The translations under genes were made by a program, and so were the position numbers. From positions 40,176 to 104,175 of the forward strand of contig JBDRAN010000006.1 in the NCBI GenBank assembly GCA_043823745.1: a stretch of DNA of 64,000 bases. The letters are read 5' to 3'. Positions 50,482-52,833 of the stretch are shown here, piece by piece (within the stretch, counting starts at the first letter, position 1; each line of letters starts with the position of its first letter). This stretch comes from Candidatus Omnitrophota bacterium (lineage in GTDB: Bacteria > Omnitrophota > Gorgyraeia > Duberdicusellales > 4484-171). Under the pieces are notes generated by a model. It did no database searches, was not told the DNA's origin, and saw nothing but the letters and a program-made list of their open reading frames with translations.

Positions 50482-51768
50482 GTGAGGGAACGAATGAATG
50501 AATTAATTACCGTTAATGGCGCAAAACTTATTTTTTCTCCCTGCAAAGACGTGGAAACCGCATCCTTCGGTGTTTTTTTAAAGATCGGCGGCCGCTACGA
50601 ACCGATCAAGACCAAAGGTATCGCCCACTTTCTTGAGCACTTGATTTTTAAGGGGAGCAAAAAACATTCCTACAAGGAAATTAAACGAGAAATCGAGGGC
50701 CGCGGTGGAACCCTCAATGGCTTCACGTCGCACGAATTCACCGGCTACTATGCGCATTTTCTTAAGAAGAATTTGCTCCCGACGTTAGATATTCTCCTTG
50801 ATATGGTTTTTCATCCCATGCTTACCCTCTCCGATATCGAAAAGGAACGTAAGGTTATTCTTGAGGAAATAAAGATGTACAACGACTTACCCAGCTCGCG
50901 CGTTGGGATGCTGCTCGATAAACTCCTTTGGCCCGGTCATATTCTTGGAGAAGAGGTCATCGGAAGCGCGGCGAGCGTCAAAGGGATTTCTCGAAAAGAT
51001 TTGTCACGGTTTAAAGCTGCATATTATCTGACCTCAAACGCCACTATTTCCTGCAGCGGAAATTTTGAGAAGACCTCGCTTACCAGGCTCCTGACCGAAC
51101 GGATACACCCTGCCCCCGGGAGAGCAAACCTTACGACCATCGCACCGGGCGTGTTGCGCGGTATCGCGATTTCTATCGAGCACAAAAAACTAGAACAGGC
51201 TCACGTATGCATCGGCTTTCGCTCTGTTTCTTACTTCGATCAAAAACGTTTTGCCGCTGAGCTCTTAAGTATACTCTTGGGGGCAAACATGAGTAGCCGC
51301 CTTTTCGAAGAAGTGAGAGAAAAAAAAGCGCTCTGCTACGATATCTCAACCGACGTACGTAAATATAAAGATAGCGGCGCCTTTGTCGTGCACACCGCTT
51401 TAGATAAAACAAAAATTGACACCGCTCTTGCCTGCGTTCTAAGAGAGCTACAAAAGATCAAAGACCGTTGTGTACCGAGCCGTGAATTAACACGAGCCAA
51501 GGACTATCTTCTTGGTCAGATCGCGATGGGGCTTGAACGACCTCAAGGAAAAATGTTCTACTCTGCTGAAAGCTTGCTTACGACCGGAGAAATTCTTTCG
51601 TTTACCCGCATCACGGAAATAGTGCAAAAAATCACCGCAGAAGAAATTCAAGTGTTCGCGAAGGAAATTTTTGATTTCACCAACATGCGTATTTCTTGTG
51701 TCGGCGATGCCGAAGCGGCGCGAACGGAAGATAGTATCAATAAGACGCTGAAACGGTTTTTGTCCTAA
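50482..51768 (+). CDS. M16-family (pitrilysin/insulinase-like) zinc peptidase
   Basis: Inverted zincin motif HFLEH…E; 428 aa. Confidence 0.75.
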   Translation: MRERMNELITVNGAKLIFSPCKDVETASFGVFLKIGGRYEPIKTKGIAHFLEHLIFKGSKKHSYKEIKREIEGRGGTLNGFTSHEFTGYYAHFLKKNLLPTLDILLDMVFHPMLTLSDIEKERKVILEEIKMYNDLPSSRVGMLLDKLLWPGHILGEEVIGSAASVKGISRKDLSRFKAAYYLTSNATISCSGNFEKTSLTRLLTERIHPAPGRANLTTIAPGVLRGIAISIEHKKLEQAHVCIGFRSVSYFDQKRFAAELLSILLGANMSSRLFEEVREKKALCYDISTDVRKYKDSGAFVVHTALDKTKIDTALACVLRELQKIKDRCVPSRELTRAKDYLLGQIAMGLERPQGKMFYSAESLLTTGEILSFTRITEIVQKITAEEIQVFAKEIFDFTNMRISCVGDAEAARTEDSINKTLKRFLS

Positions 51769-51783
51769 CCAAAGGGGGTCGTT

Positions 51784-52173
51784 ATTCCCAAAAAAACAAA
51801 TCCTCTCAAAACAAAAGCACTGCGGATCGCTGAGTTCGCGCTCGCTCAGCATGCCGAAAAAAACACCATTCTCGATGTCGAAGGTAAATGCGGTATCTGC
51901 GATTACTTTGTGATCTGCTCCGGGGAAACCGGCGTGCAAACACGCGCGATTGCGCACGAAGTAGTCACCCGATGCAAAGAACAAGGCTATGCGGTTCATC
52001 ACTACGAAGAAGATAGCGAGGCTCGATGGATTCTCGTCGACCTTTTCGATATCATCGTGCACATTTTTACTCGCGAGGCTCGCCTGTTTTATAATCTCGA
52101 GTATCTTTGGGCTGACGCGAGGAAAGTTCGTGTCTTAAAAAATAAAAAAATATCACTTCCTTCACGAAAATAG
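51784..52173 (+). CDS. rsfS: ribosome silencing factor RsfS (Iojap-like); start codon uncertain
   Basis: …ILDVEGKCGICDYFVICSGETGVQTRAIAHEV…WILVDLFDIIVHIFTREARLFYNLEYLWADA; frame is open back to the peptidase stop (51766-51768) with no in-frame ATG; GGGGG RBS at 51773-51777 suggests a near-cognate start (ATT 51784/GTT 51781); the track's GTG 51910 would truncate the domain. Confidence 0.6.
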   Translation: MPKKTNPLKTKALRIAEFALAQHAEKNTILDVEGKCGICDYFVICSGETGVQTRAIAHEVVTRCKEQGYAVHHYEEDSEARWILVDLFDIIVHIFTREARLFYNLEYLWADARKVRVLKNKKISLPSRK

Positions 52174-52201
52174 TTGACATTTGTCCAATCATTTGCTAAA
52201 T
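52173..52201 (+). promoter_or_regulatory. sigma70-like promoter for the lysine-rich micro-ORF unit
   Basis: TTGACA (52173-52178), 17-nt spacer, TAAATT (52196-52201). Confidence 0.45.
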
Positions 52202-52256
52202 TAAAAGTAACATACGTTCCGAGTGGTCGGACAAAAAACATTAGAAGGAGGTGACC

Positions 52257-52298
52257 AATGGCGAAGAAAGCGAAAGCGAAGAAAGCGAAGAAGAAATA
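52257..52298 (+). CDS. micro-ORF 1: 13-aa poly-Lys/Ala peptide MAKKAKAKKAKKK
   Basis: AGGAGG 7 nt upstream of ATG; own promoter upstream and a strong intrinsic terminator downstream; TAG stop overlaps the SD of micro-ORF 2. Confidence 0.4.
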
Positions 52299-52307
52299 GG
52301 AGGTTCT

Positions 52308-52379
52308 CATGTCAGGATGTGGATGCAGCATGAAAAAGACTCCGAAGAAAGCTTCTAAGAAGAAAACGAAAAAGAAATA
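52308..52379 (+). CDS. micro-ORF 2: 23-aa Cys-Gly-Cys-containing, Lys-rich peptide MSGCGCSMKKTPKKASKKKTKKK
   Basis: TAGGAGG SD 6 nt upstream; followed 20 nt later by a perfect rho-independent terminator. Confidence 0.45.
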
Positions 52380-52398
52380 GAACATCCTTGAGAGACTC

Positions 52399-52436
52399 AA
52401 ACCCCGCGCGTACCTCGCGCGGGGTTTACCTTTTTT
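52399..52436 (+). terminator. rho-independent terminator
   Basis: aaaccccgcgcg-tacct-cgcgcggggttt then accTTTTTT. Confidence 0.8.
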
Positions 52437-52508: not shown

Positions 52509-52760
52509 ATGCATGACTATCACCTTGTCAAATCGGTTATAAAGAGCATCGAAGAAAAAACCTCAAAACTCGAGAAGATAAAACGAGTAACCCGTATCCG
52601 CCTTACCCTCGGGTCGCTTAAAATGGTTACCAAGGAGCATTTTACGCAGACCTTTAAGGAAGTTTCCCGCGGCACGCTCTGCGAAGGAGCACGTCTGGCG
52701 ATCACTGAGGTACCGGGGGACGTTTTGATTGTGGATAACATCGAAGGGGAATTCGACTGA
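52509..52760 (+). CDS. HypA-like N-terminal (Ni-binding) domain protein lacking the zinc-finger half; possible gene remnant
   Basis: MHDYHLVKSVIKSIEE…KRVTRIRLTLG…F…RGTLCEGARLAITEV aligns along the HypA/HybF N-domain (MHE…KRVT…G…AEG…L.IEE); ORF ends before any CxxC…CxxC; no hydrogenase genes nearby. Confidence 0.4.
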   Translation: MHDYHLVKSVIKSIEEKTSKLEKIKRVTRIRLTLGSLKMVTKEHFTQTFKEVSRGTLCEGARLAITEVPGDVLIVDNIEGEFD

Positions 52761-52833
52761 TCTTGCCTCCCCGATATCTTCAAAAACCTAATACAGGTAG
52801 CTTTTTTCCGGCTCCTATGATATAATCGAACAC

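Follow-up and report, generated by a model that had tools for sequence, protein, structure and literature searches.

Predicted poly-lysine micro-protein genes behind rsfS in a clade of uncultured Candidatus Omnitrophota

The region directly downstream of rsfS in a 64,000-nucleotide (nt) stretch of a Candidatus Omnitrophota contig (JBDRAN010000006.1; this whole 64-kb stretch is the window) raises the question of whether two stacked lysine-rich open reading frames (ORFs) of 13 and 23 codons are genuine genes, an RNA, or noise, and, if they are genes, what such peptides could do. Our comparison of the unit with its relatives indicates that it is a protein-coding transcription unit, neither noise nor primarily an RNA, and that the first ORF (ORF1) is a member of an unannotated poly-lysine gene family in a clade of uncultured Omnitrophota. 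We hold it to be highly probable that the unit consists of genuine translated small genes. The best explanation taken as a whole, to which we give an even chance, is that these conserved poly-lysine small protein genes make charge-driven, nucleic-acid-binding polycations.

The unit opens with a sigma-70-type promoter (52174..52202; this and all further features of the unit lie on the plus strand) in which the -35 element TTGACA (52174-52179) and the -10 element TAAATT (52197-52202) are separated by a 17-nt spacer and match at 10 of 12 positions, and promoter scoring in the window marks it as an extended -10 promoter with TG at 52194-52195. The -35 element begins right behind the rsfS stop codon with no terminator between the two, so the unit would also be the last cistron of any upstream read-through. 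Near the predicted 5' end of the mRNA, the sequence TCCGA-GTGG-TCGGA (52218..52231) folds into a hairpin of the 5' untranslated region (UTR) that is likely an mRNA stabiliser. ORF1 (52258..52299; MAKKAKAKKAKKK, stop TAG, 13 amino acids (aa)) is preceded by the Shine-Dalgarno sequence (SD) AAGGAGGTGA (52245..52254), in which 10 nt are complementary to the 16S rRNA 3' end and which has the ATG 3 nt downstream. The second SD, AGGAGGT (52298..52304), overlaps the TAG of ORF1 and leads to ORF2 (52309..52380; MSGCGCSMKKTPKKASKKKTKKK, stop TAG), a second cistron of 23 aa with a Cys-rich N-terminus and a polybasic tail. Lysine codons make up 9 of the 13 codons of ORF1 and 11 of the 23 of ORF2. The two ORFs share one frame and are spaced as TAG + 9 nt + ATG, a 9-nt stop-to-start distance that, as read from the sequence, implies translational coupling.

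An intrinsic terminator (52399..52436) begins 18 nt past the ORF2 stop, with a 12-bp stem AAACCCCGCGCG/CGCGCGGGGTTT containing 9 G-C pairs (52399-52427), a 5-nt loop and a T run to 52436; it would also stop read-through from the upstream trpBA-M16-rsfS genes. The predicted transcript of the unit is ~170-230 nt. These signals are rare in the window: the octamer AGGAGGTG occurs once, at the ORF1 SD, two of the six AGGAGGT heptamers are the unit's SDs, and the combined promoter, SD and start pattern has one match against 0.00 expected. Judged from sequence only, the consensus promoter upstream and the G+C hairpin with T run downstream, both kept in relatives, are those of an independent sigma-70 unit. 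An earlier note on this locus had listed the promoter, the two SDs, the overlap of TAG and SD, and the terminator, all of which are present in the sequence; it had placed both ORFs correctly except for coordinates off by one, corrected here by +1, and it lacked the shared ORF frame, the 5'UTR hairpin and an 83-aa HypA-like gene ahead of ribE.

An unbiased sample of relatives was obtained by tracing RsfS homologues (51-68% identity) to their contigs, which were thereby chosen independently of the poly-lysine pattern. A poly-lysine ORF stands directly after rsfS in all nine RsfS-sampled loci (the window, L082/83, L084, L085, L086, L087, L088, L150/151 and L152), and on every contig extending past rsfS the promoter at this place is at or close to consensus, followed by AAGGAGGTG-N4-ATGGC and a Lys-rich ORF that runs up to a terminator. 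The promoter form TTGACA-N13-15-TGYTAMATT is kept in the window and in seven of the eight independently found relatives, the exception being L151 with TTGACT, and AAGGAGGTG-N4-ATG is invariant across 27 aligned loci, those found through RsfS included. As for the ORFs themselves, MAKKKKAKKK is ORF1 in L082/83 (second ORF MVTCSCCCVKKTSKKASKKAKKK), in L084 (second ORF MRCCYGKKPLKKASK..., reaching the contig end) and in L085, which has no second ORF; the poly-lysine ORF reads MAVKKAKKKTTKKKATKKKKK in L086, MAVKKAKKAVKKVAKKTAKKKK in L151 and MAKKKAAKKKVAAKKVAKKKKK in L152, and measures 28 aa in L087 and 24 aa in L088. The block trpA-M16-rsfS-polyK-(hypA-like)-ribE-ROK is conserved among relatives. 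When species-representative genomes were scanned with RibE, the best match reached only 47% identity, and none of 80 loci had rsfS adjoining ribE or a Lys-rich micro-ORF.

The family was widened with a pattern made of the shared promoter, the SD and ATGGCNNNNAAR, which among 88 loci recovers all known copies and nothing else. Scanning metagenome contigs with this pattern gave 61 stretches, about 22 of which are poly-lysine ORFs of 11-39 aa; because these matches are preselected for promoter, SD and start, the independent evidence in them is confined to ORF bodies, stops, terminators and context. One further member, L119 (651-1004), lies at the same place after rsfS and encodes 117 aa with AKKAPAKKKV repeats. 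The family as a whole spans 10-39 aa with this one member of 117 aa, differs in length between close relatives, and follows the pattern M-A-[K/V]-K-K...(A/T/V-K-K-K)n...K-K-K-stop behind an SD of 9-13 nt.

By tblastn, nearly all pattern-found poly-lysine ORFs follow rsfS in the trpA-M16-rsfS block, and this adjacency persists over changing downstream genes: hypA-like/ribE in most loci, rplU in L087, and radical-SAM/feoB or feoA in L112 and L146. The exceptions are L144 (1251-1306), behind PtsN-like and type IV pilin-like genes, and L093 (387-449), ahead of a RusA-like gene and possibly in a prophage; both copies keep the same promoter and SD design. The pattern also caught rpmG, the gene of ribosomal protein L33 (MADKV(K/M)(M/L)ECTEC...), in L104, L123, L125, L136 and L147, so a ribosomal protein gene has expression signals of the same design as the poly-lysine gene. 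Among viral contigs the same pattern had a single match, which is unrelated.

Gene callers either miss the poly-lysine ORF (no call in L152 and L082) or call a longer Glu/Ser-rich ORF in the wrong frame that runs through the terminator (53 aa in L088, 2919-3080; 37 aa in L150/L151, 2052-2165). The family would thus be absent from the protein catalogue searched, in which a 40-aa probe (the 39-aa L100 member plus one extra Lys) had no match among 5.8 billion sequences. Should the peptides be made, standard gene callers would have overlooked or misframed a phylum-level protein family with members of 10-39 residues.

The family shows a coding signature. AAR codons are densest in the ATG frame in 27 of 27 genes, the remaining two frames hold internal stops in 8 and 11 members, and an in-frame stop comes straight after the last Lys codon in every complete member. 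Together the genes encode K 408 times, A 142 times, T 49 times, V 34 times and P 11 times, with third positions free, in that all four bases are used in Ala, Thr and Val codons, and relatives differ by the synonymous changes GCG/GCA, AAA/AAG and TGT/TGC. AAA and AAG are equally frequent but ordered against long A runs: compared with synonymous shuffles, runs of at least 8 number 5 against 30 expected, runs of at least 11 number 0 against 5.5, and the longest run is 9 against 13.9 expected, a value reached in 0 of 5000 shuffles, although these figures overstate independence in sequences related by descent and are not true probabilities, which counts against our interpretation. Long A runs cause ribosome sliding (PMC4363877), so the codon order looks like selection for frame fidelity. 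A terminator follows the poly-lysine gene in 25 of the 27 loci, with stems that differ and are compensated, at a distance of 18-99 nt from the ORF.

Conservation and coding signature together support the proposal, first made in the earlier note, of a self-contained unit of genuine Lys-rich micro-proteins rather than noise, and the ORFs are conserved beyond their nucleotides in syntenic relatives (rsfS to ribE), through synonymous change and whole-codon length changes in ORF2. Two other frames across the unit were rejected: an antisense, Phe/Leu-rich ORF of 103 aa (52089-52400, minus strand) that spans the whole unit reflects the Lys codons on the other strand (AAR to YTT) and is no gene, and a Glu-rich frame starting from a GTG inside the SD meets stops in 11 of 27 relatives.

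The widely conserved part of the two-ORF unit is ORF1; ORF2 is confined to the window's small sub-clade, with four loci (the window, L082/83, L084 and L139, the last encoding MTPCCCAKKSSKNTSRRAKKK), and it is dispensable in L085. In this ORF2-bearing sub-lineage ORF1 is short, at 10-13 codons. The arrangement TAG + 9 nt + ATG is kept in all four loci despite differing spacer sequences, and the ORF2 copies differ by whole-codon indels only. Each carries 2-4 Cys codons within its first 8 residues, with TGT and TGC varying, so that the Cys-richness seen earlier as a Cys-Gly-Cys start is conserved and that exact motif is not. The ORF2 coding region aligns (alignment A2) with the 3'UTR of the single-ORF relatives L152, L091, L086 and L118, with which it shares the elements AGCTTCT(A/T)A..., AAATA(A/G)AACATC and the CCCCGCGC terminator, which argues for a lineage-specific cistron born from 3'UTR sequence, or lost into it. 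From these sequences ORF2 is judged to be younger than ORF1. The palindrome AGCTTCT(A/T)AGAA(G) (window 52345-52358) is conserved both as coding sequence (Ala-Ser-Lys-Lys of ORF2) and as 3'UTR in the same four relatives. Single-ORF relatives have an additional 3'UTR hairpin ahead of the terminator.

What these peptides could do was approached through known families. At E <= 10, Pfam, NCBIfam and PDB held nothing fitting the 28-39-aa members or the ORF2 variants (the 13-aa ORF1 is below searchable length); the sole match in profile and PDB searches with short members and ORF2 was compositional, to the Lys/Ala/Thr linker of Streptomyces HrdB. The chlamydial histone-like protein Hc2 (HctB) has 165-237 aa and varies in length with the number of its Lys-rich repeats (PMC2848022). 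Its variable-copy Lys/Ala-rich tandem repeats have a counterpart in the (A/T/V)KKK-type units of the poly-lysine family, whose length plasticity parallels the variation in repeat number, and the combination of Lys with Ala/Thr/Val/Pro in short tandem Lys-rich repeats is shared with both Hc2 and the tails of HU/DksA/AlgP-type proteins. Omnitrophota are often placed with or near the Planctomycetes-Verrucomicrobia-Chlamydiae (PVC) group, the home of Chlamydiae. L119 shows a continuum from micro-peptide to H1-like protein, and apart from Hc2-type profiles it matches only the Lys/Ala/Pro tails of HU, DksA, RHH and SWIB proteins. Unlike Hc2, the window peptides, at 13 and 23 aa, are 10-20 times shorter and have no profile match: the Hc2 profile did not match ORF2 or four 28-39-aa members at E <= 10, ORF1 with its 13 aa being too short. 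Unlike Hc2 and the HU/DksA/AlgP-type proteins alike, they have no attached folded domain and stand under their own consensus promoter beside rsfS.

Protamines, synthetic oligolysines and polyamines offer a comparison of another kind: they are unstructured polycations of high charge density by which nucleic acids are condensed or neutralised, and charge, not sequence, sets their function. The window peptides would likewise be charge-dense polycations; protamines differ from the poly-lysine ORFs in being eukaryotic and Arg-rich, and oligolysines and polyamines in being non-ribosomal small molecules. To our knowledge, a ribosomally made bacterial oligolysine gene has not been described before, and a search of the literature on Omnitrophota and on bacterial Lys-rich micro-proteins found nothing relevant.

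What speaks for a charge-driven binder of polyanions is the extreme length plasticity together with an alphabet purely of K/A/T/V. In the mechanism that we propose, each family gene, directly downstream of rsfS and equipped with a near-consensus extended -10 promoter, an SD of 9-13 nt and a strong intrinsic terminator, would yield abundant unstructured polycations acting via charge rather than fold. These may bind polyanions, namely nucleoid DNA and/or rRNA, in the way of the Lys-rich repeats of Hc2/H1-like proteins or as a gene-encoded oligolysine or polyamine. Within the window's sub-lineage ORF1 would have shrunk to its present size, and a coupled ORF2 with a Cys-rich head and a Lys-rich tail would have arisen from what is 3'UTR sequence in other lineages, with metal or redox as candidate roles for its cysteines. 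Composition suggests this specific polycation mechanism, which we place slightly short of an even chance.

Rather unlikely, and offered tentatively, is the broader proposal of gene-templated oligolysines in Omnitrophota, down to a length of 10 codons, that as abundant cellular polycations supplement or replace polyamines or H1-like proteins, or that form a hitherto unseen RsfS-partnered ribosome or hibernation component, with ORF2 born de novo from a 3'UTR. If this holds, the genes would rank with the shortest stand-alone protein genes that are conserved. Provided that the peptides are made, the family would extend the lower size limit for conserved, independently transcribed bacterial genes and offer a concrete candidate mechanism by which Omnitrophota, ultra-small and uncultured, could neutralise or compact their nucleic acids or ribosomes, and ORF2 would be a tidy natural case of a new cistron emerging from a 3'UTR.

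Several points weigh against genuine genes for polycations. Evidence for transcription, translation and a stable peptide is sequence-based throughout, and the functional assignment draws on composition alone. The sequence is of low complexity, and its composition could partly reflect a constraint at the RNA level, such as an A-rich unstructured tract. Only the nine RsfS-based loci are unbiased for promoter, SD and start, the metagenome matches being pattern-selected. Hardly any bacterial protein known to act in trans is as short as 10-13 residues, and peptides of this size may degrade rapidly. In L106 (406-564, after rsfS) the tract ends ...AAGAAACGAATAGAACACC with the usual TAG shifted into another frame and the ORF continuing across the terminator, which would leave a non-stop mRNA; this is either a real frameshift or an assembly error. 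The match of L119 to Pfam HC2 (PF07382), at 35.6 bits and E 1.3e-8, stays under the gathering score of 40, and that to NCBIfam NF038052 reaches 20.1 against a cut-off of 135. ORF2 is known from four loci only and is missing from L085, where ORF1 leads straight to the shared AACATC motif and the terminator. Finally, the persistent adjacency to rsfS hints at a link to the ribosome rather than the nucleoid.

This last point belongs to the main rival of the polycation reading, in which the peptide would be a dedicated ribosome-bound micro-protein, similar to bS22, eL41 or mS38 or a hibernation factor acting with RsfS, seated in an rRNA pocket; on analogy we consider it improbable. Its precedent is bS22, a tiny basic ribosomal protein of 30-33 aa with ~61% Lys/Arg, usually unannotated and discovered only by cryo-electron microscopy, which is found in mycobacteria, Bacteroidetes and Borrelia, is predicted elsewhere, and was missed by annotation in Borrelia (PMC10618245). 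The same loss in annotation would affect low-complexity purine-only micro-ORFs systematically, which is a practical warning (cf. PMC10618245). Like bS22, eL41 and mS38 (DUF1713, AURKAIP1/COX24), the poly-lysine peptides combine tiny size with a basic share of more than 60%, escape annotation, would be highly expressed (as read from their signals) and probably form a charged rRNA-binding helix or strand (PMC10618245). By this likeness bS22 is the closest ribosomal analogue of the family. The place beside rsfS kept through three downstream contexts (hypA-like/ribE; rplU; radical-SAM/feoAB) also speaks for a ribosomal role, as do expression signals as strong as those of ribosomal protein genes, seen in the rpmG matches.

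Set against this, bS22 mixes Arg with Lys, conserves hydrophobic positions and holds its length at ~30-33 aa, near-invariant within a genus, whereas the poly-lysine family is free of Arg and of hydrophobic anchor residues and runs from 10 to 117 aa, changing among close relatives. The 39-aa L100 and ORF2 had no match at E <= 10 to the bS22, mS38 and eL41 chains or any other ribosomal chain in PDB, nor a Pfam match to DUF1713, ORF1 again being too short; as a control, a bS22 query (KKRRKRMxKKKHRKLLRRTR core) does recover its own family in PDB. Moreover, the entire trpA...ROK block is syntenic, so the adjacency to rsfS may be inertia.

Charge-driven polycations also have to be weighed against two readings in which the RNA acts and the peptide is secondary, both of which we regard as very improbable. 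In the first, the ORFs are cis-acting leaders whose translation reports on Lys-tRNA or on translation capacity and sets how much transcription passes the terminator into the genes downstream, the peptide being a by-product. The resemblance to hisL/pheL/thrL-type leader peptides is real, in that an ORF of 10-30 codons dominated by one amino acid (here 60-75% one codon family) is followed within 18-99 nt by an intrinsic terminator, and no strong promoter was detected between the window terminator and the hypA-like gene. Such attenuators need an antiterminator, whereas none pairs here: the terminator is retained in both the minimum-free-energy and the centroid fold, and its C-rich 5' arm CCCCGCGCG can find no pairing partner in the purine-only tract of the ORF. 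They also precede a constant or related gene, whereas the genes downstream vary by lineage (hypA-like, ribE, rplU, radical-SAM/feoAB) and none is lysine-related. In addition, the unit has its own strong promoter and sits at the end of an operon, not the start, ORF length spans 10-117 codons, and ribE is served by a conserved TGnTATAAT promoter of its own. Rfam leaders score no higher than noise: with Rfam 15 only tRNA-Pro passes in the window, and the unit's best scores are 12-20 bits against cut-offs of 42-57. The doubt raised earlier about a lysine-sensing leader is shared here.

The second would make the unit a non-coding or dual-function small RNA (sRNA), in which an A-rich (ARN-like) tract and the terminator U-tail bind Hfq-type or other proteins and the ORFs are incidental. 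A transcript of ~170-230 nt with its own promoter and terminator is sRNA-like, and the AAR repeats fit the ARN motif, which is associated with Hfq-type RNA binding; the GCN, ACN and GTN codons between them do not. Nucleotide-level conservation of the palindrome AGCTTCT(A/T)AGAA and of the extra 3'UTR hairpins extends to loci in which the region is non-coding, and the window transcript folds better than shuffles (z -3.5), a score that is largely due to the terminator. Single-sequence folds place a 5'UTR hairpin at the same position, with differing sequence, in 16 of 27 relatives (z < -1.5); since some relatives lack it, it is optional, and RNAalifold on the 5'UTR alignment returned no consensus structure, MAFFT leaving the hairpins out of register. 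No conserved RNA structure was seen beyond this optional hairpin and the terminator, which runs counter to the structured sRNA that had been named as an outcome fatal to the micro-protein claim, and there is no Rfam match. The invariant 9-13-nt SD at a fixed distance from an invariant ATG, together with the frame, stop placement and third-position pattern, is that of a coding sequence.

Least probable of all is that ORF1 and ORF2 form one gene whose in-frame TAG is read through or recoded to give a 40-aa protein: the shared frame and the constant 9-nt spacer in all four two-ORF loci favour it, but the overlap of SD and stop accounts for the fixed distance, and L085 ends at the first stop and proceeds to the terminator. 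In this genome TAG serves as a normal stop, closing 9 of 51 long ORFs as well as ORF2, and every single-ORF relative has TAA or TAG at the end of its ORF, which marks the ORF1 stop as ancestral; TAG recoding was rejected on these grounds.

The poly-lysine unit lies between trpB, trpA, an M16 peptidase gene and rsfS upstream, and the HypA-like gene, ribE, tRNA-Pro and a ROK kinase gene downstream. The window RsfS is 99% identical to protein P0001 of an NCBI Candidatus Omnitrophota metagenome-assembled genome; exact-sequence look-ups for the window RibE and for P0001 returned no record. The rsfS gene (window 51781-52173) has no ATG, GTG or TTG start before 51910, yet its RsfS domain starts earlier. 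P0001 begins MAEFALAQ where the window has IAEFALAQ, which implies an annotated ATC start at 51826; an alternative candidate is ATT at 51784, preceded by AAGGGGG.

Between the unit and ribE, the HypA-like gene (52509-52760, 83 aa) covers Pfam HypA positions 1-70 of 112, with the MH(D/E) N-terminus present and the CxxC...CxxC zinc domain absent. L082, L085 and L086 have conserved versions of 84-85 aa, and tblastn adds matches in L124 and L139. The Cys-rich head of ORF2 occurs only in lineages with the HypA-like gene, and one could speculate that its cysteines are functionally linked to this zinc-domain-less neighbour; against such a link, the HypA-like gene stands without ORF2 in L085, L086 and L124, so the co-occurrence is one-way.

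Just upstream of the ribE start, an extended -10 element TGnTATAAT is found at ~52816-52825 in the window and also in L088, L091, L096, L103, L129, L133, L151 and L152, so ribE would be transcribed independently of the poly-lysine unit. Over the 64 kb, stop-to-stop ORFs of at least 200 codons number 51, and 44 of them lie on the plus strand, a very strong one-strand bias; among the seven on the minus strand, at least one is spurious (51487-52134, antisense to rsfS).

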